Below, one piece after another: positions 15,652 through 42,319 of a DNA stretch of 64,000 nucleotides. The notes under the pieces are model-generated. The model made no database searches, had not been told where the DNA came from, and saw only the letters and a list, made by a program, of their open reading frames with translations. The DNA is taken from contig CALQZS010000001.1 in NCBI GenBank assembly GCA_943349945.1, positions 130,803 to 194,802 of the forward strand, read 5' to 3'. Each line of letters starts with the position of its first letter. Positions within the stretch are counted from its first letter, which is position 1. The translations under genes and the position numbers were made by a program. The stretch is from Candidatus Nomurabacteria bacterium. GTDB lineage: Bacteria > Patescibacteriota > Minisyncoccia > Phycocordibacterales > SBAW01.

Positions 15652-16302
15652 TTAATTAATAATTTCCACCAACACTTCATTGCGATACATCCACGGTGGA
15701 GTCCATGGTGCGCTGTATCCAGCGTATGCAGTGCTTCCCTTTGTCGCCACTCCATCACGGGCAAGTGCCGAAGCTAATTTTTCTTGCATGTCTTTTACCC
15801 GCGTATCCGAGCGATACCCCGAGAATTGCAGTACTGCATATTTCTTGGTAGGGATCATCACGATTTTCACTCTCGGATCATTTGGTGTCGGTAATGTTTC
15901 AAGGGTGTACGAGCGGGGCATACCAAAAGATATTATTTGCGAGTCACCATCAGTCGTCGCTACTACCGGTGCAGTCATAGCAATATTTTCTGATGTTTTT
16001 TCGCCTCCTACTTTTTGCGCGATGACTGGAACGGTCATCGCTATACTTTCTTTTTTTGTATTTCCGCCAAAGATATACCCAGCAACAATTCTAAAACCAT
16101 TATTCATAGATTCTCCATAAGAACCCTTTACCGTAGTCTGCGCTACGATATGTGCCGGATATTCTCGTATTTCATATCCATCTTTTATCTCAATGACAGT
16201 ATAGTCAGCTTGCTCAACACGCGAACCAAAAAATCCTGAGATAGACCAAAGCACCACAATAACAAGCAAAGCGATAAGTATAGTGCTCATATTTTTATTC
16301 AT
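15652..16302 (-). CDS. SOUL heme-binding protein family protein
   Basis: N-terminal TM helix plus the SOUL/HBP fold signature (YEIREYPAHIVAQT...AGYIFGGN). Confidence 0.7.
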   Translation of the reverse strand: MNKNMSTILIALLVIVVLWSISGFFGSRVEQADYTVIEIKDGYEIREYPAHIVAQTTVKGSYGESMNNGFRIVAGYIFGGNTKKESIAMTVPVIAQKVGGEKTSENIAMTAPVVATTDGDSQIISFGMPRSYTLETLPTPNDPRVKIVMIPTKKYAVLQFSGYRSDTRVKDMQEKLASALARDGVATKGSTAYAGYSAPWTPPWMYRNEVLVEIIN

Positions 16303-16345
16303 ATAGCTTTAGTATATAATAGTATATACTAAACTATAATAATAT
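16297..16345. promoter_or_regulatory. divergent promoter region with TAGTATATA direct/inverted repeats (candidate operator)
   Basis: ttagtatataatagtatatactaaactataataatattagtttagtatat lies between the SOUL (-) and fasciclin (+) starts. It contains a 12-bp inverted repeat atatactaaact/agtttagtatat. Confidence 0.35.
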
Positions 16346-16393
16346 TAGTTTAGTATATGCATTAACAATATTTAATCAATTTAAAATAAATAT

Positions 16394-16795
16394 ATGCAAA
16401 ATATCGTAGAAACAGCTGTCGCAGCAGGATCATTTAAAACACTGGTCACTGCAGTGCAAGCGGCAGGATTAGTAGACACTCTATCTGGTGCAGGTCCCTT
16501 CACTGTATTTGCTCCAACTGATGAGGCTTTCGCCAAAATTCCAAAAGAGACTCTCGACGCAGTCCTTGCGGATAAAGCAAAGCTAACATCTATACTTACG
16601 TACCATGTGGTGGCAGGAAAAGTAATGGCTTCTGATGTAATGGGCCTGACTTCTGCAAAGACAGTACAAGGTGATGAAGTTAAAATAGAAACTGCAGATG
16701 GAGTTATGGTAAACGACGCCAAAGTAGTACAAACAGACATAGAATGCACAAACGGAGTAATCCATGTCATCGATTCAGTCTTGATGCCAAAATAA
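16394..16795 (+). CDS. fasciclin (FAS1) domain protein
   Basis: Typical FAS1 H1/H2 motifs ([10 protein letters not shown]...[11 protein letters not shown]). Confidence 0.8.
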
Positions 16796-16814
16796 ATACA
16801 TCCGAAATAAAAAT

Positions 16815-16844
16815 AAAAAACTCTAACTTTTGTTAGAGTTTTTT
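16815..16844. terminator. bidirectional rho-independent terminator
   Basis: aaaaaactctaacttttgttagagtttttt, with A-run and T-run on both sides, between convergent genes. Confidence 0.6.
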
Positions 16845-16855
16845 ATTTTTATTGA

Positions 16856-17245
16856 TTAGGCGTCTATTTTTGCCGCAAGAATAAAATCATTTTGAGAGAG
16901 TCCGTTAATTGCATGGGTGGACAGCGTGAGCTCTACAAATTTGTAGTTTTTCAGATATATGTCCGGATGATGCCCCTCTGATTCAGCCAAAACGCCAACC
17001 TTATTTACAAAAACAAGAGCTTCATTGAAGTCCTTAAAACTATATCGCTTGGCGATACTTTTAGCATCAAGCGAAATATCCCAGCCGGGAATTTGCTTGC
17101 ATAATATATCTGCCTCTATCTTTGAAAAAGGAATGACACCACCATCGCATGCCATGCATTTTTGTTGAGTCAGTGGCGAGTTAGTTTTAGGAGTAGGGGC
17201 CTGACTCTGTATAGTTGTATGTTCCATATGCTTGTAGTATAGCAA
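16856..17245 (-). CDS. phhB: 4a-hydroxytetrahydrobiopterin dehydratase (PCD/DCoH)
   Basis: EGHHPDI...ELTLSTHA motif. Confidence 0.8.
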   Translation of the reverse strand: MLYYKHMEHTTIQSQAPTPKTNSPLTQQKCMACDGGVIPFSKIEADILCKQIPGWDISLDAKSIAKRYSFKDFNEALVFVNKVGVLAESEGHHPDIYLKNYKFVELTLSTHAINGLSQNDFILAAKIDA

Positions 17246-17268
17246 AATTAAGAATGGCTACAAATTTT

Positions 17269-18939
17269 TTATTTCGTATCAATATGATTCCACGCAAAAC
17301 CCTTGTCTCCATACACTTTTTTACCTGGGTTTAAAATAGCAAGCGGGTCAAAAATATCTTTTGTCTTTTCAAAGAGACGTACGATCTCAGGGGTAAACAT
17401 CTGCGAAAGGTACGAGGTACGTAAAAGTCCGTCATTATGTTCTCCAGACATAGAACCTCCATACTGAAATACGAGAGTATAGACTTCATCCATGAGTGTA
17501 TGGAGAGTCTCAACTATTCCTTCTTTATGAATGTCAATAAGCGGAATAATATGAAAGTTTGCATCTCCCATATGTCCGGCCACAGTATAAATAAGATCAT
17601 ATTTCGAAAAAATAATTTCAAGTTTGGGAAGAAACTCCGGGAGATCTTTTGTGTGTACGACAATATCATCAATTGTGGGTGCCGTTCGATACCCTCGCAA
17701 CTTCTGGCGAAGCAGGTTGAAGCTTTCGCGCCTGAATGTCCAATACTTTTTTGCTTCTTGTTCCGAGTGCGTCAATGTAATAGGAAATCCGAATACCTTC
17801 ATCTCGTTATATGCTGACTGTACCTGCTCTGCAACTTCTTCTTCAGTATCCCCTGCAAATTCTGCCATGAGAATTATCTTTGGAACTCCGCCAGTGATTG
17901 CCATCCAAAACTCAGGCAAAAATTGGAACCCGAGCGTCAACATAGTACCCCCCATGCTTTTTGCAATTGAACCAAAGAATTTAATCGCTATTTTAAACGT
18001 ATGATCATCATAAGATTCGATGGTTTCAGGTGTATGTTTTAAAAGTCTTGGAATTATTTCTCCTAGTTGCGTTGTGGCTGGCAAAAACATAACGAGCATT
18101 CTGGAATGTTTTTTGGGGACAATTCCACTCAATGTCGCTTCAGTCACACAGGCAAGGGTTCCCTGACTGCCCACAACGAGCTTTGATAGGTCAAATACTC
18201 CTGATTCTTTATCGTAGACATTCCAAAGATAGTACCCTGAAGAATTTTTTGTTACTGTCGGTTTTGCTTGTTGCAGTACATCATAGTTGTCCTTTACAAG
18301 GGCAAATATCTCTCGATGAATGCGCCCGCTTTCAGTTTGTTCTTCGCATTTTGCGATAAGTTTCTCTGCATGAAGTGGTTCTAGAACATCTTCTTCTCCA
18401 TTTGCAAATACAACACGAAGCGAGCGAACATACTTTTCCGTCTTTCCATAGGTAAGTGTCTTTTCACCTCCTGAGTTATTAGAGACAATACCTCCAATCG
18501 CAGCCAAATCACGAGACGCCGGATAGCTTGGCAAAAGCCAGCCGTGCGCAAGAGTCTTTTTCTCAAAATCACTATAGTATACCCCCGGCTCTGTTATGGC
18601 TTCTGTGTCGGTGACAGAAAATACATGATTCATGTATCTCATTGTGTCTACGACGATGGATTCCGAAAGTGGGCCACCGGTCATACAGGTACCGGCGGCA
18701 CGCATGGTGAGGGATAACGGTACACCCTGATCTATATCTTTAGTTTTTTTTGCATGCACATAAGCAACAAGTTTTGCAATGTCTTCTTTACTTTTTGGGT
18801 AGACAACAATGCGGGGTTTTACATAAAAAAGGCTTGTGTCTCGCGCAGCTTTTTCTCGATCACTGTCTAAGATAGAAATATCTCCTTTGATTATTGTACG
18901 CAAATCACCAGCGACATCCGTATAAAAAATTTCATTCAT
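17269..18939 (-). CDS. FAD-linked oxidase (D-lactate dehydrogenase/glycolate oxidase GlcD-like)
   Basis: 556 aa with an FAD-binding PCMH domain and an FAD-oxidase C-terminal domain. Confidence 0.8.
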   Translation of the reverse strand: MNEIFYTDVAGDLRTIIKGDISILDSDREKAARDTSLFYVKPRIVVYPKSKEDIAKLVAYVHAKKTKDIDQGVPLSLTMRAAGTCMTGGPLSESIVVDTMRYMNHVFSVTDTEAITEPGVYYSDFEKKTLAHGWLLPSYPASRDLAAIGGIVSNNSGGEKTLTYGKTEKYVRSLRVVFANGEEDVLEPLHAEKLIAKCEEQTESGRIHREIFALVKDNYDVLQQAKPTVTKNSSGYYLWNVYDKESGVFDLSKLVVGSQGTLACVTEATLSGIVPKKHSRMLVMFLPATTQLGEIIPRLLKHTPETIESYDDHTFKIAIKFFGSIAKSMGGTMLTLGFQFLPEFWMAITGGVPKIILMAEFAGDTEEEVAEQVQSAYNEMKVFGFPITLTHSEQEAKKYWTFRRESFNLLRQKLRGYRTAPTIDDIVVHTKDLPEFLPKLEIIFSKYDLIYTVAGHMGDANFHIIPLIDIHKEGIVETLHTLMDEVYTLVFQYGGSMSGEHNDGLLRTSYLSQMFTPEIVRLFEKTKDIFDPLAILNPGKKVYGDKGFAWNHIDTK

Positions 18940-19154
18940 ACATTTATTATAACATTATCGGACTCATTTTACTTAGCGTTTGCTTCGAGTTTTTCTTCGC
19001 TGTATATACCAGTACACATAGAGAGAAAGTAGAAGGATTATATTCGGAATAAATATGATTGGTTGACCCCAGGATATTCCATTGATATGGAAGTCTGAAA
19101 TCGGCCACAAAAAAGGCGTTGGGAAAAAGGCAAAATCGTGTGTAGGTATATCAA

Positions 19155-19445
19155 CTAAAATATGAAGTGGCCACGCGAGCGTAAGCTTGGCAAAATGCTT
19201 TTTGCCAAGAATAACGCATAAACGACCAAGCTATGAGTAATACCATAGACGGTGAAGACGTACGGCGGAATCGTTTCTAAGCTTGGCCGACCCATTGCGC
19301 CACCAGAAACTAGATTTATTATAAAAAGAGGCGCGAACGCCAAGAGGTCTGGCCCTATACCAAAGAGAAATGCAGTCACATAATCCCGCCTGCGCATGCG
19401 ACCAAATGCAACACCTCCATATAATCCGTGAGAGATAATGTCCAT
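19155..19445 (-). pseudogene. possible truncated/frameshifted membrane-bound metal-dependent hydrolase (DUF457-like) remnant
   Basis: 96-aa ORF MDIISHGLYGG.... Additional hydrophobic reading frame continues after the stop in 18960-19150, with an overlapping alternative frame at 19231-19449. Confidence 0.3.
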
Positions 19446-19473
19446 ACATTTATTATACTATTTGTATGTGAAA

Positions 19474-20934
19474 TTATTTTTTAGACAGATACTCCTTTGC
19501 AATTTTTAAATAATTTTCTTTTTTCTTTTTTTCCATCTTATCAAAAAGTCTCGGCATCATCGATAGTCGATGATTACTTGTGAAAAAGTCACGGTGACTA
19601 GCTATGAAATTCCAATACAGTGCAGTCCACTTCTCTTCCCAATCGCCACCAGTATAATCTGACATTTTTTTAATGTAATTGCTACCCGAGATATATGGTT
19701 TGGTAGCAAAAATACCACCATCAGCGAACTGACTCATCCCATATACATTTGGTACCATTACCCAATCATACGCATCAACATACATTGCCATAAACCATTG
19801 ATACACATAATCGGGATTAACCTGAGAAAGCAACATAAAGTTACCGATAACCATCAATCGTTCGATATGATGATTGTATCCATAGTGCAGAGCTTTCTTG
19901 ATAGCGCTGTCGACCGGAGCAATACCAGTATCTCCAGTCCAAAATCCTATTGGCAAGTTGCGGGAATGTTTCCAAAAATTCTTCGTGCGCATGACGGCAC
20001 CATCACACTCATAGGAAGCGCGCATAAACTCACGCCACCCAATGATCTGTCGTACAAAACCTTCGAGTGAATTTATAGGTATAGCGTGAGTATCTGCATA
20101 TACTATTGCACTATCGATTACCTGCCTTGGGTCGAGCAATCCAATATTTATGAGAGCTGACAATGTAGAATGAAAAAGCCGTACGCTTTTCGTAGAAAGC
20201 GCGTCCTCATACACACCAAAATCTGCAAAGCGGTCTTCTAAAAATACCTGCAAAAATTTTTTGGCATCCTTGTGTGTATATGGTAGCCAGCAGGCTATCT
20301 CTCCATATTTTTCAGCTTGTATTGTATCGAGCCACTTCTTCATTTTTGATACATCAAAATCATTTTCAAAAACAGTATCCTTGGGGAGAGTTGTATCTCG
20401 AGCAAGTTTTTTTCGATTGTCTGCATCAAAGCTCCACGCTCCCCATCTGGGCTTTCCATGTCCGTCCATCAAGATACCCAAGTCCACTCGAATTTTCTTG
20501 TAGAACATCGCCATATTTTTCTTTGAGCTTTTGTATCTTGCTATTGATTCCTCCTTTGGCAAAATAAAAAGTGGTGACTCATACCAAACCCGCTTTATCT
20601 TGGAAGCTGTTATAGCCCGCTCCAAATAGAAGTCAGTAGTATCGACAATATGAAGTTCTTGTATCCCTTCTTTTTTTAAATAATCAAAAATATCTTTCGT
20701 CTTCGGATACTGTTCAATCGTCAGGCATTTTACTTTGTACCCCTCTTTTTTCAAAAGCTCTGCATATGCGCCCATACTTAATTTGTGCAAAATTAGCTTT
20801 TGATAATGAATGGGGTTGTGCGACAGAATCAAGGGCTCTTCAATCAAAAAAATAATCCGTGCTTTTTGTATAGCCGGTGATTTTATAAAAAGTTGATGAG
20901 GATAGACCAATGTTGCTTCTTTCATAGTATTCAT
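19474..20934 (-). CDS. cryptochrome/photolyase-related protein (COG3046-type)
   Basis: 486 aa with GWREF and NHHIERLMVIGNFMLL motifs, in an AT-rich gene. Confidence 0.8.
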   Translation of the reverse strand: MNTMKEATLVYPHQLFIKSPAIQKARIIFLIEEPLILSHNPIHYQKLILHKLSMGAYAELLKKEGYKVKCLTIEQYPKTKDIFDYLKKEGIQELHIVDTTDFYLERAITASKIKRVWYESPLFILPKEESIARYKSSKKNMAMFYKKIRVDLGILMDGHGKPRWGAWSFDADNRKKLARDTTLPKDTVFENDFDVSKMKKWLDTIQAEKYGEIACWLPYTHKDAKKFLQVFLEDRFADFGVYEDALSTKSVRLFHSTLSALINIGLLDPRQVIDSAIVYADTHAIPINSLEGFVRQIIGWREFMRASYECDGAVMRTKNFWKHSRNLPIGFWTGDTGIAPVDSAIKKALHYGYNHHIERLMVIGNFMLLSQVNPDYVYQWFMAMYVDAYDWVMVPNVYGMSQFADGGIFATKPYISGSNYIKKMSDYTGGDWEEKWTALYWNFIASHRDFFTSNHRLSMMPRLFDKMEKKKKENYLKIAKEYLSKK

Positions 20935-20937
20935 CTA

Positions 20938-21204
20938 TCAGGTTGATAGTATTAAAATCAAAATAGCGAAGTATACGATCAGATAAAAACGATAGAAATT
21001 AATCACCCGCAACTCTGCACTCTTCGTGCGCTGATGAAAGCCAAAAAGCACTTTGATCTCCTCCCAAAAAACGGGCTTTACATTAATCCACCAGCTATCA
21101 GTTTGATAGACCATCTTCCTAAATCGACTGCGAAACAATCCCAAAGGAAAACTCCAGATAAAAAACGCAACGATGGCAATCGTGTGTATGGTTATAGTAT
21201 CCAT
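20938..21204 (-). CDS. small membrane protein (translationally coupled to photolyase-related gene)
   Basis: 88 aa, two TM segments, with its stop 3 nt from the downstream start. Confidence 0.4.
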   Translation of the reverse strand: MDTITIHTIAIVAFFIWSFPLGLFRSRFRKMVYQTDSWWINVKPVFWEEIKVLFGFHQRTKSAELRVINFYRFYLIVYFAILILILST

Positions 21205-21325
21205 TTATGCCTCTTCAGTCCTTACTTCTATTATAAACTTTATTCTCTCAAGAGCTACCATTCCCTCCCCCTCCTTTTTGCGAACCTCGACCTTCAGGGG
21301 CAAAAGATACTTTGGCCATAAATTT

Positions 21326-22225
21326 TTACTCCACCGGACAGGTGTTTTTGCCCATCGCGGCGTAGAACCCACACCAGCTAAATATTGCTTCAAAGAATGC
21401 AAGGCCGGAGAAGAAGATGAGGATGGGGCTCCAGGTGGTGGTGATGGCCCATAGGAGCAATGCAATGCCAATGGCGAGGCGGACGAGTCGGTCGGACTTG
21501 CCGATATTTTTAGCAACTCCACGCACAGAGTTTTTAGCAACCTTTTTCAAAATCGCGCGGTAGACGAAGCCCACGATGAACGCAAGAATATATATAATGA
21601 CAATCAGTCCCCACCCAAAGGGCGAGAGGATAAAGCCGATTGGCGATTCGTTAAAAAAATCCTTTTTAATCTGCGGGATGAGCGTGAGTGCGTTTAAGCC
21701 TTCTTTGCCGTCAAACTTCTCTATCTCACCGATGGCGAGCGAGTACTTGCTGTCGTTGTTGGGGCTTGTCACACGGATCTCGTAGATGCCTACATCAGCA
21801 CGCGCTTTATACTCTGGTCCTTGCCAGTAGGTGTCGTAGCCAAATGGTTCAAAAAACTGTTTCCATGCAAATGTCGCGCCATCGAGCACGGCGATTTGCT
21901 TGCCGTCTTTTAGTACCACAGCGGAGACATCTTTCTTTTGCCCTGCAATGTCTGGCACCAAGACTCCGACATACAGATTAAACGCTTGCTTCGCATCTAT
22001 AGTATATACATCCGGCTCGCCCATGAGCTTGCCATAATATGCTTTGGAAACTTCGGGGTCAGTAACTGATGTAAGTCTATCCTCTGTAATTCGAGGCTGA
22101 TGTGCGGAAGCCAAGCTCGGAGTCAACGTAAATATAGAGACAAACAACGCAAGCAGCGTGAGTGATAGTAGTTTGGAATTTATGTTATATCCGAAAACGT
22201 TCAAGATGCACCTAGTATACAGCAC
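21326..22225 (-). CDS. secreted protein with C-terminal DUF2892-like transmembrane domain
   Basis: Signal peptide plus a C-terminal RLVRLAIG...SWCGFYAAMGKNTCP motif. Confidence 0.5.
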   Translation of the reverse strand: MLYTRCILNVFGYNINSKLLSLTLLALFVSIFTLTPSLASAHQPRITEDRLTSVTDPEVSKAYYGKLMGEPDVYTIDAKQAFNLYVGVLVPDIAGQKKDVSAVVLKDGKQIAVLDGATFAWKQFFEPFGYDTYWQGPEYKARADVGIYEIRVTSPNNDSKYSLAIGEIEKFDGKEGLNALTLIPQIKKDFFNESPIGFILSPFGWGLIVIIYILAFIVGFVYRAILKKVAKNSVRGVAKNIGKSDRLVRLAIGIALLLWAITTTWSPILIFFSGLAFFEAIFSWCGFYAAMGKNTCPVE

Positions 22226-22230
22226 CTAGT

Positions 22231-22599
22231 CTAGAAGTAAGGGATGAGTAAACTAAGTCCCTTCCCCATCAGAAAGCTGTATATCAGCAACCCAATGAAC
22301 GGTAGAGGCACCAGCCATAAAAACCATCTTGGATGGTCAGGTTTTTTTGAAAAAACCATGTACCAATTCAACGCAAATATAAGAGGTGTACAAATTGACA
22401 AGAGAGCACTTGTACCAAAACCGAGCAGTCCAAACACTTCCCCACTACTCCATACGAAAGAGTCGTCCTGCACAATAAACAAAAAGGCTACGCTCGACCA
22501 AACAACAGCTATTAGAAACACCTTTACTAAAAGCGCTTCGTAAATTCCAATAGCAGCCAAAACTATTTTTACAGGCGTGTTGATGGTGAATCTATGCAT
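22231..22599 (-). CDS. hypothetical membrane protein
   Basis: Start moved to ATG 22597-22599 (MHRFTINTPVKIV...), because the track ORF's N-terminus overlaps a tRNA on the same strand. Confidence 0.45.
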   Translation of the reverse strand: MHRFTINTPVKIVLAAIGIYEALLVKVFLIAVVWSSVAFLFIVQDDSFVWSSGEVFGLLGFGTSALLSICTPLIFALNWYMVFSKKPDHPRWFLWLVPLPFIGLLIYSFLMGKGLSLLIPYF

Positions 22600-22627
22600 G
22601 TAGGTAATTATATACCCATAACCGTTG

Positions 22628-22714
22628 CGGAGAGAGCGAGATTCGAACTCGCGGGCCCAATTAAGGGCCGACAGTTTAGTAAACTGTTGATTTAAACCAC
22701 TCATCCATCTCTCC
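22628..22714 (-). tRNA. type II (long variable arm) tRNA, Ser-like, anticodon apparently ACU
   Basis: Acceptor GGAGAGA/TCTCTCC, T-arm GCGAG-TTCGAAT-CTCGC, variable arm GGCCC-TTAATT-GGGCC, and anticodon stem ACAGT/ACTGT with loop TTACTAA. Confidence 0.7.
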
Positions 22715-22926
22715 ATATATTCGCACTGCTCAAATGGAGCTGCTCGGCGCAGATCGATGGAATCGTGGTCGGCACATGGTGCCGGCTTGAGAAGAAGCAG
22801 TTCTTCTCTTCGCCCATCTCATCCATCTCTCCTTGCCCTTGAGGATACTACAGTATATAGAGGAGCTCAATTAAAGCCTTTTTGAGCGTGTAAAGTAGCC
22901 CCTATTATGGTACTGTGGCGTGTATT

Positions 22927-23011
22927 GGAGACGTGTCAGAGTGGTCGAATGTGCCTCCTTGCTAAGGAGGTAGGGCGCAAGCCCTCGTGGGTTCGAATCC
23001 CACCGTCTCCG
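22927..23011 (+). tRNA. tRNA-Ser (GCU)
   Basis: Acceptor GGAGACG/CGTCTCC, anticodon loop TTGCTAA between CCTCC/GGAGG, long variable arm, and T-arm GTGGG-TTCGAAT-CCCAC. Confidence 0.85.
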
Positions 23012-23049
23012 CAAAGCTAAATTTTGATATATTCTCCTATCTAAATTTT

Positions 23050-23230
23050 GCTTATGTGTGAACGGGAGAGGGATTCGAAGGACGGAAGAAAAGCTCTGGG
23101 AGAGCTTTTCTGAGTCGGGGTCGCGAGATTTTTCAGCAGAAAAATACTTGTGACCGAATCCCACTGTCCACAAATACTACGCGGCGTAGAATTGAGTCGA
23201 AGCCGAATCGTTTTAATCGTCTCCGCTTAG
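23050..23230. repeat. degenerate tRNA-end fragments (possible att-site scars)
   Basis: gggagagggattcgaagg resembles the end of the minus-strand tRNA. gaccgaatcccactgtccaca and atcgtctccgc resemble the 3' end of tRNA-Ser(GCU), TTCGAATCCCACCGTCTCCGCA. Confidence 0.35.
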
Positions 23231-23298
23231 TTTTTTGTAGTGTTCTACTGTAGAGCATTTTATGTGGTATAAACAAGCCATATCATTAATTTTTTAAT

Positions 23299-23931
23299 AT
23301 GTCTCGACAAACGATATTAATATTAGTCCTTATTGTTTTGGTGGTTGGCGTAAGCGGGTATTGGTATTTTAGTCACCAAAGCAAGGTTACCGACGTACCT
23401 ACAGAGGTGGTTGCAACGACAAATACTACCCATGTAGAAGAAGTAAAGGTGGAAAATAATCGAAAAAGTGCCGTAACGTCTAATGGTTTGGAATTTGACC
23501 CGGCTAAGGTACAGCCCGGGGAAAAATTCGGTGCGTTTACAGTTATTGCTTCGAGCGCTTATACGATTGGCGATGAACACTCTTACTCAGTAAGTTTCAA
23601 AGGACCTGTAAATATCCAGGGTGTATTAAACAATTTTGAGCCTAGTATGTGTGGTGCAGTACTGGAGATTTCTACATCAACTTCCGAAACCTTGCCTAGA
23701 GTGAGCGGTGAAAAGGTGGGGAGCATGAATGTATACCTTGACCTAGATGGTTTGCCAGAGGCAGAGCGTGTTACTTATACGAGCGCCGGTTTTACAACCC
23801 CTTCCGGGCAACTACTCCAAGAGGGTGATGTGTTAGAAGTAACTGTTGATACGTTTTTGGCTTCGCACCAAGGGAAAGATTGTAGCGGCAAGAGGATACA
23901 GGTCACCTCATTTAAGAAGCTTTCTATCTAA
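23299..23931 (+). CDS. hypothetical secreted/membrane-anchored protein
   Basis: 210 aa with an N-terminal TM/signal anchor. Confidence 0.5.
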   Translation: MSRQTILILVLIVLVVGVSGYWYFSHQSKVTDVPTEVVATTNTTHVEEVKVENNRKSAVTSNGLEFDPAKVQPGEKFGAFTVIASSAYTIGDEHSYSVSFKGPVNIQGVLNNFEPSMCGAVLEISTSTSETLPRVSGEKVGSMNVYLDLDGLPEAERVTYTSAGFTTPSGQLLQEGDVLEVTVDTFLASHQGKDCSGKRIQVTSFKKLSI

Positions 23932-24022
23932 CTGCGCAGCAAAATAGAAAACTTCGCCTCAGTACATATTTGTGACCGAGTCTCACTCTCTCTCCGCCAT
24001 ACATATACAACTTTTTTAAGAG

Positions 24023-24070
24023 TTGATATCCGCATTGACAATATCAACTAAACAGTATAAACTGTTGACA
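24023..24070 (+). promoter_or_regulatory. promoter region of fic with two palindromic operator-like sites
   Basis: gttgatat-N10-atatcaac and aacagtataaactgtt overlap two TTGACA hexamers just upstream of the ATG. Confidence 0.4.
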
Positions 24071-24075
24071 TTCAT

Positions 24076-25257
24076 ATGAGCAACATCAATAGACCAAAAA
24101 TAGGTCGCTACGTAGCCCAAAAAGAGGGGTTCAAATCCTTCACCCCTTATGACTTTCCACCCAAGGAAGGCTTTGTTATTAGTCCTAAATTGTATAAAAA
24201 ACTTGAGGATGCGATTCGACTAGTCGGCAAGCTTGACGGTATCACTCGCCTGCTACCCGACAAAGACTTCTTTCTTCTTATGTTCATCAAAAAGGACGCC
24301 GCCTATTCAAGTCAAATAGAAGGCACCAAAGCTACCCTACAGGATGCCGTGGCGGCACCAGTTACAGAAGAAAAATCACGTCGACATCCTGATGTAGATG
24401 ACATAGTCCATTATGTTGAGGCCGTAAACTATGGCATCAAACGAAGCGAGACACTCCCTATTTCTCTGCGGTTAGTACGAGAGATACACGAGAAGTTAAT
24501 GACAGGTGCACGCGCCACACAACATGCCTATCCTGGCGAATTTAGACGTTCCCAAAATTGGATTGGGGGTAAAATTCCTCAAGATGCCTCCTTTGTGCCA
24601 CCTGCGCCGCACGATATGGACAAATCACTGGATGATTTGGAAAAATTCATCCATGCAAAAGATGATTACCCCTCACTTATAAAAGCGGGTCTTTTGCATG
24701 CCCAATTCGAAACAATTCACCCATTTACAGACGGCAACGGACGTACAGGACGCATGCTTATTGCTATGTACATGCACCACACAAAACTTCTTGAATTACC
24801 TATATTGTATCTATCTAGTTACTTCAAAAAGTATCAAAAACTCTACTACCAAAAGCTTCAGAATTACCATGAGGAAGATTCCGATATAGAAGGTTGGCTA
24901 GAGTTCTTTCTTGAAGGTGTTGCTGAAATTGCTGAATCTTCAATCGAAACCTGTACTAATATCACAGCCCTTCGAGACCGAGACTTTGCGAAAATGCAAA
25001 AACTTGGCAAACAGTCTGCTGAATCAACACTCGAAGTGGTGCGCAAACTCTTCAGCCAACCAATAGTCGGGGTTGCAGAAATAATAAATTGGACTGGGTT
25101 TAGCCCACAAGGGGCGTACAACATGATTGAGCGACTTAAAGCTCTAGGAATTCTAGAGCCTCTTGGTGATGCAGAATATGGACAAAAATACATCTATGCA
25201 GACTACTACAGGCTCTTTGATGATACTTTTAATACAACAAAAGTAAGCAAAAAATAG
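24076..25257 (+). CDS. fic: Fic family protein (AMPylator/adenylyltransferase), class II with N-terminal inhibitory motif
   Basis: Active-site HPFTDGNGRTGR (HxFx(D/E)GNGRxxR) and the inhibitory helix motif SSQIEG ((S/T)xxxE(G/N)). C-terminal wHTH-like region. Confidence 0.85.
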   Translation: MSNINRPKIGRYVAQKEGFKSFTPYDFPPKEGFVISPKLYKKLEDAIRLVGKLDGITRLLPDKDFFLLMFIKKDAAYSSQIEGTKATLQDAVAAPVTEEKSRRHPDVDDIVHYVEAVNYGIKRSETLPISLRLVREIHEKLMTGARATQHAYPGEFRRSQNWIGGKIPQDASFVPPAPHDMDKSLDDLEKFIHAKDDYPSLIKAGLLHAQFETIHPFTDGNGRTGRMLIAMYMHHTKLLELPILYLSSYFKKYQKLYYQKLQNYHEEDSDIEGWLEFFLEGVAEIAESSIETCTNITALRDRDFAKMQKLGKQSAESTLEVVRKLFSQPIVGVAEIINWTGFSPQGAYNMIERLKALGILEPLGDAEYGQKYIYADYYRLFDDTFNTTKVSKK

Positions 25258-26188: not shown

Positions 26189-27643
26189 TTAAAACTCGAT
26201 CTTTCTATATTCAGGTTTAAACGCACACCCTGCACATGCCACGTCGGACACAGCAGCACCTTGCGCAATCGCCTCGCCCAACCAGCCGGTAAGCCGCGTC
26301 GTGTCTTCCGTATAGTCACTCGAGCGCAACACAATAACCGCCACTCTGTGTTTTTCTGGCCCGTTTGATACGGTAAATACCGACACCATGGTCTCGCCTG
26401 CCGCAGTCGTCTGCCCCACCTTGCCGCCCACAAAGCTTTTTTCGCCCGAAAAGATATTGAGGTTTTGGAGCGCATATACCGCGCCATCGTTTGCTTTAAT
26501 CGTCTTGGCCGGAGCGCGCGTAATATCCCACACAAACGACTTTTTATTTGCCAAGTACATAGCTAAACGAAACAGATCGTCGGGAGTTGATTTGTTGTAT
26601 GGCGACATGCCGCTTGGGTCGGCAAACTGGGTCGCAGTCATCCCCAGTGCCTCTGCGGTAGTATTCATCCATTCTACAAAACCCTTCGTACCATAAAAAC
26701 TGGCCAACATGTCGGCCACGTGGTTGTTAGACTCCATCAAAAGTGGGTACAGCAAGTCGCCGATAAAAAATCTTTTCTGCTCTGTACTGCTTGCAAGCGC
26801 GCGCGACAGCTCCCCTTCCCGCACGGGCACCTCCTTTTCAAAACTGATTATCTCGCTGGCCACCAGTGCGGTCATGAGCTTGGCTACAGACGCCACAGGC
26901 ATCTCTCGGTCTGCGTTGCGCTCGAGGTACACATCGCCGGAGTCTATGTCGGCCACCAAGTAGGCTTCGGCCGAAACAAGCGGCGCTTCCAACTGTGCCA
27001 ACACCCACGGCGTAGTAGACGCCGCCCCATGCGCATCATAGACAAACAATCCCGTACCCTTGTCGGCAAAAGCAAAAATCTCTTGTGCATCTTCGGTCGA
27101 GAGCCGTATGCACCCACCCGAGAATGTCGAGGCCACCGGCGTGCCGTCTGGATAGGTTGGCCACCCATGGATAAAGTAGTTGCCATAAAACTGCATGCTG
27201 TAGGGCATGTTGACGCTCCCTATGGTCGAGAAGTGATTCTCTTCTTTTGTTTGTACCGAATAAAATCCGCTTGGCGTCTCCCACGGCGTCCCCGGCTTGC
27301 CTTTGGTCAAAATGGGGTACGTGGCGGTGGTGGTGCCATTTTCATACAAAGACACCTGCATAGCATCCAGGTCGGCGACCACAAACTTGCCTGTGTGCGG
27401 CACCACCTGTGCAATAGACAGCGCGTTAATTACCCGCTTGGGTGTGCGCGGCGTTATTACGGGTGTGGACGTCGCAAGCGGCACTTCCGCAACAGTCGCC
27501 ACAGATTGTGTGTTTGGCCATGTTTGCAAGTACAGCAGCCCCGCACGCCCACCCAACCCCACCACAAGCACTAGCGCCACAAAAATACCCACAAAGTACA
27601 AACCTCGCTTGTCGACTGCATGCTCTATACCACCGTACTCCAT
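26189..27643 (-). CDS. fused L,D-transpeptidase (YkuD) / D-alanyl-D-alanine carboxypeptidase (PBP5-like serine peptidase) membrane-anchored protein
   Basis: N-terminal TM helix. The LDT catalytic region is HGWPTYPDG...STFSGGCIRL. The DD-CPase motifs are SVAK (SxxK), SNN (SxN) and GKVGQT (KTG-like). Confidence 0.75.
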   Translation of the reverse strand: MEYGGIEHAVDKRGLYFVGIFVALVLVVGLGGRAGLLYLQTWPNTQSVATVAEVPLATSTPVITPRTPKRVINALSIAQVVPHTGKFVVADLDAMQVSLYENGTTTATYPILTKGKPGTPWETPSGFYSVQTKEENHFSTIGSVNMPYSMQFYGNYFIHGWPTYPDGTPVASTFSGGCIRLSTEDAQEIFAFADKGTGLFVYDAHGAASTTPWVLAQLEAPLVSAEAYLVADIDSGDVYLERNADREMPVASVAKLMTALVASEIISFEKEVPVREGELSRALASSTEQKRFFIGDLLYPLLMESNNHVADMLASFYGTKGFVEWMNTTAEALGMTATQFADPSGMSPYNKSTPDDLFRLAMYLANKKSFVWDITRAPAKTIKANDGAVYALQNLNIFSGEKSFVGGKVGQTTAAGETMVSVFTVSNGPEKHRVAVIVLRSSDYTEDTTRLTGWLGEAIAQGAAVSDVACAGCAFKPEYRKIEF

Positions 27644-36378: not shown

Positions 36379-36531
36379 CAAGAAGAAAGGGATTTCCCCT
36401 TACAGGGGCAGTACAGGTCTCGTATCGCACTTCATAAACTTTATGCGATATACTCGACCTTTTCAATCCCTGCACATACAGTGCATAGGCACTGTATTCG
36501 CGCCAATACTCGCTATGCTCGTTCTATTGTG

Positions 36532-36603
36532 TGGGCGCGGCAGGGATTGAACCTGCGACCAGTCGTGTATAAGACGACCGCTCTACCACTGAGCTACGCG
36601 CCC
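36532..36603 (-). tRNA. tRNA-Ile (UAU)
   Basis: Acceptor GGGCGCG/CGCGCCC, D-arm GCTCAGTGGTAGAGC, anticodon stem GTCGT/ACGAC with loop CTTATAC, and T-arm GCAGG-TTCAATC-CCTGC. Confidence 0.75.
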
Positions 36604-41590: not shown

Positions 41591-41656
41591 GGCTAAAACG
41601 ATTACCATGCAATCGTTCGCCCGAACAAATCTTGGCACAAGATTTGTTTTAGGGGG
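41591..41656 (+). repeat. direct repeat copy 2 (duplicated smpB 3' end remnant) abutting ssrA
   Basis: ggctaaaacgattaccatgcaatcgttcgcccgaacaaatcttggcacaagatttgttttaggggg. Confidence 0.5.
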
Positions 41657-42018
41657 ATGCCAGGCCTAGACAATGAAGACGCCTGTTGAATGCGCGCAGT
41701 AGAAGTCTGGACCTTCTTAAAAATCCGGAAACAATAACTGCAAAAAACAGTGTTTCGCCGTATTTCGCGGCGAACGACTTCCAGTTCGCGTTCGCGCGAG
41801 CGTAAGTCGCATCTACCCTTCCTCTCTCTTGCGGGTTGGGATAGGTGTTATATAGCAAGAGTATAGTTGCAAGAGCCGCTCTGACTTGCATCCGAACATA
41901 AGAGCTGCAGGAAGTTATGATTTCGTTTGCTTTGCCCATAACAGCCTAAAGAAACAACAAGCGAACTACACTACGTAGAAGCTTCAGCAGCACTTCATTG
42001 CACGGCGGTTCAATTCCG
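41653..42018 (+). ncRNA. ssrA: tmRNA (ssrA)
   Basis: 5' GGGGAUG pairs with 3' CAUCUCC-A, including a G3:U wobble. T-arm GGCGG-UUCAAUU-CCGCC. The tag ORF GCG GCG AAC GAC UUC CAG UUC GCG UUC GCG CGA GCG UAA encodes (A)ANDFQFAFARA. A terminator follows. Confidence 0.8.
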
Positions 42019-42319
42019 CCCATCTCCACATAAAAATAAAACGCGCCCATAGTTGGGTGCTTTTTATTTTCCCTGTCACCTCTGCCCCACTCGGCGAGTT
42101 GTCATAAGTGTCTAGCAATAAAACAAACACACCATGGAACACTTGAGTTAAGCCGAGGAGGCTGCCACCCCAAGGGGACGCGGCCTCCTCGGCGCACATG
42201 GTGCGTTTTGCACCCCTGTTTTTTGCATATGCACACAGATGGTGGTATGTTCAAAAAACGTACAGCGTTTGTTTGTTACGTACTGCACGTCCTAACTCAA
42301 GACTATTTGGGGAAAGCCG

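Follow-up and report, generated by a model that had tools for sequence, protein, structure and literature searches.

A serine tRNA gene whose anticodon begins with A (ACU), a type that reviews list as universally absent, is present and intact in a 64,000-nucleotide stretch of Patescibacteria (CPR) DNA (contig CALQZS010000001.1 of GCA_943349945.1; hereafter the window). It is strongly conserved, belongs to a family that is widespread in these ultra-small bacteria and in tRNA arrays of viral contigs, and most likely reads only the AGU codon. We give this reading a probability of about 0.75.

The tRNA-Ser(ACU) gene and its neighbourhood

ARAGORN finds four RNA genes in the window (Table 1), one of which it calls tRNA-Ser(act). 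The Rfam tRNA model (RF00005) scores this gene at 55.8 bits with no non-canonical pair, slightly above the neighbouring tRNA-Ser(GCU), which scores 54.5 bits. Read 5' to 3', the gene has an acceptor stem GGAGAGA/UCUCUCC, U8 and G9, a 3-bp D stem GAU/AUC enclosing GAGUGGUUUAA, a single A, an anticodon stem ACAGU/ACUGU around the loop U32 U33 A34 C35 U36 A37 A38, the dinucleotide CG, a long variable arm GCCC-UUAAUU-GGGC, the dinucleotide CC, a T arm GCGAG-UUCGAAU-CUCGC and the discriminator G73; no CCA is encoded. It thus has the cloverleaf of a bacterial type II tRNA-Ser, and G73, G1-C72, G2-C71, A3-U70 and the long variable arm, the elements by which SerRS recognizes its tRNAs in E. coli, are all there. 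Only the anticodon falls outside the canonical serine set (NGA or GCU), and since SerRS ignores the anticodon, charging with serine is still expected. The first-pass annotation had described a clean type II cloverleaf with the anticodon ACU, divergent from a normal tRNA-Ser(GCU) 200 bp away. This observation is confirmed and its anatomy is exact; the strand, which had not been stated, is minus.

Table 1. Features of the window discussed in the text
Feature	Position	Strand	Remarks
tRNA-Ser(ACU)	22628-22714 (ARAGORN 22627-22714)	-	Type II, 87 nt without CCA; A34 at 22680, C35 at 22679, U36 at 22678
Spacer between the divergent tRNA genes	22715-22926		212 bp; presumably holds both promoters and leaders
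15-nt direct repeat	22700-22714 and 22818-22832		Equal to the first 15 nt of tRNA-Ser(ACU)
Spacer hairpins	22770-22784 and 22789-22808
tRNA-Ser(GCU)	22927-23012	+	Divergent partner; anticodon stem CCUCC/GGAGG
Conserved element 3' of tRNA-Ser(GCU)	23060-23172	+	About 110 nt; att-like 3' end
Extra DNA relative to related species	23013-25257		2.2 kb, including the insertion at 23173-25257
Second degenerate tRNA 3'-end copy	23966-23997
PBP/YkuD protein gene	26189-27643		Anchor for retrieval of related species
Low-G+C region	about 16000-22620		G+C 0.40-0.43, against 0.50-0.55 elsewhere; abuts the 3' end of tRNA-Ser(ACU)
tRNA-Ile(UAU)	36531-36603	-	74 bits in Rfam
tmRNA	41653-42029	+	Tag peptide AKNSVSPYFAANDFQFAFARA
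Sub-threshold Rfam hits to Plastid-psbl-rps4 3'UTR RNA and Plastid-ycf2	22628-22679 and 22962-23011	+ and -	Antisense strands of the two tRNA-Ser genes; a database artefact

The window also carries type IV pilus genes, SecY, EF-Tu and FtsH. Its RecG is 72-75% identical to proteins labelled Candidatus Adlerbacteria and about 70% identical to Paceibacterota, Minisyncoccia and Kaiserbacteria proteins. The organism is a Patescibacteria/CPR bacterium of the Paceibacteria group, near 'Adlerbacteria'. The tmRNA is ordinary and lies next to smpB-like synteny in relatives.

The anticodon is not an artefact. A search with the exact Maf protein encoded 2.3 kb away recovered independent assemblies of the same species, one copy of the locus being in the metagenome-assembled genome GCA_943349885.1, and the three that span the gene (designated L001, L003 and L004) all carry the identical gene, with ACT. 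Nor is the gene a fresh duplicate, since it is only 57% identical to the adjacent tRNA-Ser(GCU), the median over the 98 loci that hold both genes being 60%. The two are old paralogues. The body of the ACU tRNA in fact resembles ordinary bacterial tRNA-Ser(GCU) genes, with up to 87% identity, whereas it is the CPR GCU tRNA that has a distinctive anticodon stem.

The DNA around the pair is variable. On the 3' side of the ACU gene it differs in the strain variant L003 and in each related species examined. The adjoining low-G+C region encodes a SOUL haem-binding protein, an FAD-linked oxidase, a photolyase-related protein and a YgaP-like membrane protein, and its content differs between related species; no integrase or phage gene was found nearby, and no direct repeat of the ACU 3' end bounds the region. 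The 118-bp unit defined by the 15-nt repeat is missing in L003 but present in three other species, so that L003 looks like a repeat-mediated deletion or an assembly variant. A promoter and terminator scan found no consensus sigma-70 promoter in the spacer and nothing convincing next to the gene. On the other side, related species have Maf within a few hundred bases of the GCU tRNA, while the window has the extra 2.2 kb, which contains the conserved att-like element, the second tRNA 3'-end copy, a 210-aa ORF with no Pfam match and a Fic/DOC gene. Homologues of the Fic protein are 80-88% identical across Uhrbacteria, Peregrinibacteria and Bacteroidota, which indicates horizontal transfer and led us to reject it as a synteny anchor.

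The conserved element has the layout GGGAUUCGAA..., a variable hairpin, ...GAGUCGGGGUCGCGAGAUUUUUCAGCAGAAAAAUACUUGUGACCGAAUCCC, and ends in a degenerate copy of the tRNA's T-loop-to-3' end, including its 3' acceptor strand. Its core is 89-98% identical in six other loci from distantly related CPR genomes (L007, 6253-6297; L109, 6198-6257; L372, 7041-7092; L081; L100; L097), and it lies directly 3' of a tRNA-Ser gene in each locus where the neighbour was checked (the window, L007, L372 and L100). No Rfam family matches. It could be a miniature integrated (cis-mobilisable) element or an undescribed ncRNA; it is part of the variable DNA attached to this tRNA pair and not of the tRNA function. These features are typical of tRNA genes acting as insertion targets and do not change the reading of the tRNA itself.

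Conservation and distribution of the family

Orthologues were first retrieved without using the tRNA. Homologues of the PBP/YkuD protein with 76-79% amino-acid identity led to three other species (L375, L376 and L377), all of which carry the divergent Ser(GCU)/Ser(ACU) pair in the same chromosomal neighbourhood (Maf, PBP/YkuD, ABC transporter, ECF sigma factor). Across the four species, the ACU tRNA has 0 variable positions out of 87 and the GCU tRNA is likewise identical, while 23 of the 212 columns of the spacer vary and the outer flanks do not align. The ACU gene is therefore constrained exactly as strongly as the canonical one. More distant PBP homologues had lost synteny. Retrieval through RecG (71-75% identity) gave loci either too far from the tRNAs (L371) or carrying only Ser(GCU) near RecG (L372-L374), which says nothing about the rest of those genomes; the position of the ACU gene, and perhaps its presence, is thus not universal within Paceibacteria.

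Species-representative genomes were then scanned for a degenerate pattern requiring a Ser-like D loop, the loop TTACTAA and a T loop, for which we estimate about 0.4 chance matches. At least 120 genomes carry it. Of these 120 hits, 96 are labelled as Patescibacteria lineages (39 'Saccharibacteria', 42 Paceibacteria/Parcubacteria-type, 5 Magasanikbacteria and 10 'Patescibacteria group'), 14 are unspecific and 10 are other taxa, two of the latter (L039 and L072) having sequences identical or nearly identical to viral-contig tRNAs. ARAGORN calls tRNA-Ser(act) in 119 of the 120, giving 111 distinct sequences. On the cloverleaf, 98.8% of cells are paired and 19 of 24 pairs show double, compensatory changes, with a covariation score of 0.576 against 0.172 for shuffled partners and at most 0.10 for slid partners. 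G1-C72, A3-U70 and G73 are invariant, and G2-C71 holds in 111, across 112 distinct family members. A Ser(gct) lies in the same 8-kb stretch in 78 of the 119 loci and within 600 bp in 55; the commonest layout is divergent, as in the window, and recurs across CPR classes. In several loci RecG or tRNA-Ile(UAU) also lies near the Ser tRNA genes.

Since the pattern fixed the loop, loop invariance in this set holds by construction; the unbiased evidence is the three protein-anchored species, together with a loop-free scan of metagenomes. In the latter, a pattern built only from the D arm and anticodon stem of the ACU tRNA proved not to be specific, as it occurred with GCU (64), UGA (28) and ACU (28) loops. 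Only an argument from context survives: 24 of the 28 ACU loci have a second, different Ser(gct) nearby, and in pairs of AGY tRNAs the member with this body was always ACU, no pair of two GCU tRNAs being seen.

The same pattern is found in at least 120 IMG/VR viral contigs (L247-L366), with 97 distinct tRNA-Ser(act) genes, although some of these contigs, for example L335, may be misclassified cellular DNA. The genes sit in tRNA arrays with Gln(ttg), Thr(tgt), Asn(gtt), Glu(ttc), Arg(tct), Lys(ttt) and Ile(tat), and Ser(gct) is present in only 1 of the 120 loci. There ACU appears to take the place of GCU as the AGY decoder of the array. Five arrays also carry Arg(acg), and one (L317) has a tRNA-Phe(AAA) call, another 'forbidden' A34 anticodon. 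BLAST of a phage-type Ser(ACU) and its surroundings against GenBank phages found no close cultured relative, the four tRNA-Ser hits inspected being UGA or GCU, and PHROGs scans of ORFs beside two ACU genes were uninformative.

Proposed decoding by an A34 serine tRNA

In the explanation we favour, the gene encodes a functional serine isoacceptor, an old paralogue kept by purifying selection, that decodes AGU by full Watson-Crick pairing (A34 with U3, C35 with G2, U36 with A1), alongside tRNA-Ser(GCU), which reads AGC and can wobble on AGU. The U36-A37 context is the usual one for t6A37. The intact cloverleaf, the presence of the serine identity elements, the conservation, the covariation and the distribution are established here from sequence; that the tRNA is expressed and charged with serine, that A34 stays unmodified and that only AGU is read are inferences, the last resting on analogy with an engineered tRNA. 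This orthogonal M. jannaschii tRNA with anticodon ACU read AGU in E. coli at 9.4%, AGC and AGA below detection, and AGG at 0.36% (Schmitt et al. 2024; PMC11066159), a discrimination of at least about 10:1 in vivo; it has, however, an artificial tyrosine-accepting body and the anticodon loop CU-ACU-AA, and is not a natural Ser tRNA. SerRS does not read the anticodon, so a G34-to-A34 change would leave charging intact. Ser is the only NNY two-codon box whose synthetase ignores position 34, which, we infer, plausibly explains why only this A34 anticodon has become established. Codon usage in the window gives mixed support: AGU is used at 7.5 per 1000 but is not the preferred AGY codon (AGC, 13.2 per 1000), and GCU alone could read both, which leaves the selective benefit unexplained.

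The first-pass annotation had proposed an unusual decoding adaptation (through A34 or I34), a recently mutated duplicate or a sequence error. This interpretation is partly supported: the decoding adaptation stands, the inosine variant of it is unlikely, and the two other options are refuted. If A34 were deaminated, the tRNA (ICU) would read AGU and AGC, but would also misread AGA (Arg), used at 3.5 per 1000 in the window, as Ser. In favour of this possibility, A34 of tRNA-Arg(ACG) is converted to I34 in most bacteria (PMC8007984), and in the phage arrays where Ser(ACU) replaces Ser(GCU), five of which carry Arg(acg), one tRNA reading both AGY codons would be economical. However, CPR are reported to lack tRNA-Arg(ACG) and to use GCG instead (PMC8629427), and so presumably lack inosine editing, for which reason A34 most likely stays unmodified; consistent with this, tRNA-Arg(gcg) was seen in three CPR loci (L048, L084 and L380), and Arg(acg) in none of the CPR loci fetched. 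In addition, the loop has U32 and U36 where the TadA substrate, C32-U33-A34-C35-G36-A37-A38, has C32 and G36, and E. coli TadA was very specific for the tRNA-Arg2 anticodon and loop: inosine was detected in only 3 of the 15 A34 anticodon variants tested, and ACG, AUG and AAG, but not ACU, are named among those modified (PMC11066159).

It is somewhat less likely still that the tRNA was acquired recently from a phage or genomic island as an accessory passenger. The abundance of Ser(ACU) in viral contigs, the variable 3' flank, the low G+C of the adjoining region, and the att-like copies and mobile Fic gene beside the partner tRNA would fit such an origin. Against it, the pair and its spacer lie in conserved synteny in four species, the divergent arrangement recurs across CPR classes, neither mobility genes nor a bounding repeat was found, and tRNA genes are usual insertion targets, which explains the variable flanks. 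A role as a non-ribosomal seryl donor, for example for cell-wall or lipid aminoacylation, is improbable: an apparently redundant isoacceptor invites the idea, and dedicated non-proteinogenic tRNAs exist in some Gram-positive bacteria, but the T arm (GUUCGAAUC), D loop (GG) and anticodon loop (U33, A37, A38) are fully canonical, the anticodon loop is the same in every member recovered, including the three species fetched independently of the tRNA, and translation-oriented phage arrays carry it. Finally, although a single G-to-A change would create an anticodon listed as universally missing, a pseudogene, a fresh duplicate or an error at position 34 is ruled out by the identical ACT in three assemblies and four species, the full-length gene with all stems paired, the low identity to the neighbour, a score equal to the neighbour's, and the 111 distinct, covarying family members.

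Relation to known anticodons and significance

A 2021 review states that all ANN anticodons in split boxes except Ile are universally missing, and specifically that A34 is universally missing in the Ser-Arg box, but its sample had no CPR (PMC8007984). The 2024 study calls unmodified A34 tRNAs 'essentially absent' and treats the reason as an open question (PMC11066159). The remark of the first-pass annotation that A34 tRNAs other than tRNA-Arg(ACG) are rare in bacteria matches this literature, but understates how common this particular one is in CPR and phages. We found no paper describing tRNA-Ser(ACU) in CPR or phages in full-text searches, which did not extend to subscription journals, so that prior mention elsewhere cannot be excluded. 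What appears to be new is a natural isoacceptor class thought not to exist.

One close counterpart is the canonical AGY decoder, bacterial tRNA-Ser(GCU), with which the ACU tRNA shares the type II architecture, G73, G1-C72/G2-C71/A3-U70 and the U36-A37-A38 context; it differs in having A at position 34, in coexisting in CPR with a second, divergent GCU tRNA and in occurring almost always without one in phage arrays. Mycoplasma tRNA-Thr(AGU) and yeast mitochondrial tRNA-Arg(ACG) also carry an encoded A34 that stays unmodified, in organisms or organelles with reduced genomes and few modification enzymes (PMC11066159), but they serve four-codon boxes, where promiscuous reading does no harm, while ACU sits in a split Ser/Arg box, where only U-specific reading is tolerable. 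The tRNA-Arg(ACG)/TadA system shares an encoded A34 followed by C35, and differs in the loop positions and the predicted Arg-to-Ser misreading discussed above. tRNA-Ile(UAU), in bacteria that decode AUA without lysidine, is another anticodon usually listed as missing in prokaryotes and used as a dedicated decoder in place of a modification-dependent one, although it belongs to a different codon box and its unusual base is U34. It is present in the window, where AUA is frequent (19.7 per 1000), and near the tRNA-Ser genes or RecG in a number of the CPR loci fetched, which suggests AUA decoding without lysidine. The ACU gene fits a wider CPR habit of using dedicated decoders in place of modification-dependent wobble, of which tRNA-Ile(UAU) and Arg(GCG) are examples.

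A more speculative possibility, which we consider doubtful, is that CPR bacteria and many phages split the AGY serine box between two dedicated tRNAs, ACU for AGU and GCU for AGC, A34 carrying either no modification or a still-unknown one. This would make AGU a separately controllable codon and would be a natural precedent for splitting a two-codon box; in phages, Ser(ACU) would replace Ser(GCU) in order to favour AGU-rich phage genes, or to escape host nucleases or defences that target the G34 anticodon loop.

In practice, annotation pipelines and curators should not discard tRNA-Ser(ACU) calls in CPR or phage genomes as errors. The gene of the window is one member of a large, selectively maintained natural family, found in a whole bacterial radiation and in phage tRNA arrays, that breaks the rule of A34 absence from split codon boxes. 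It offers a precedent for codon-specific decoders of interest to genetic-code engineering, a natural system for asking how unmodified A34 decodes and why it is normally avoided, and a possible link between loss of the TadA/inosine system and freedom to use A34.
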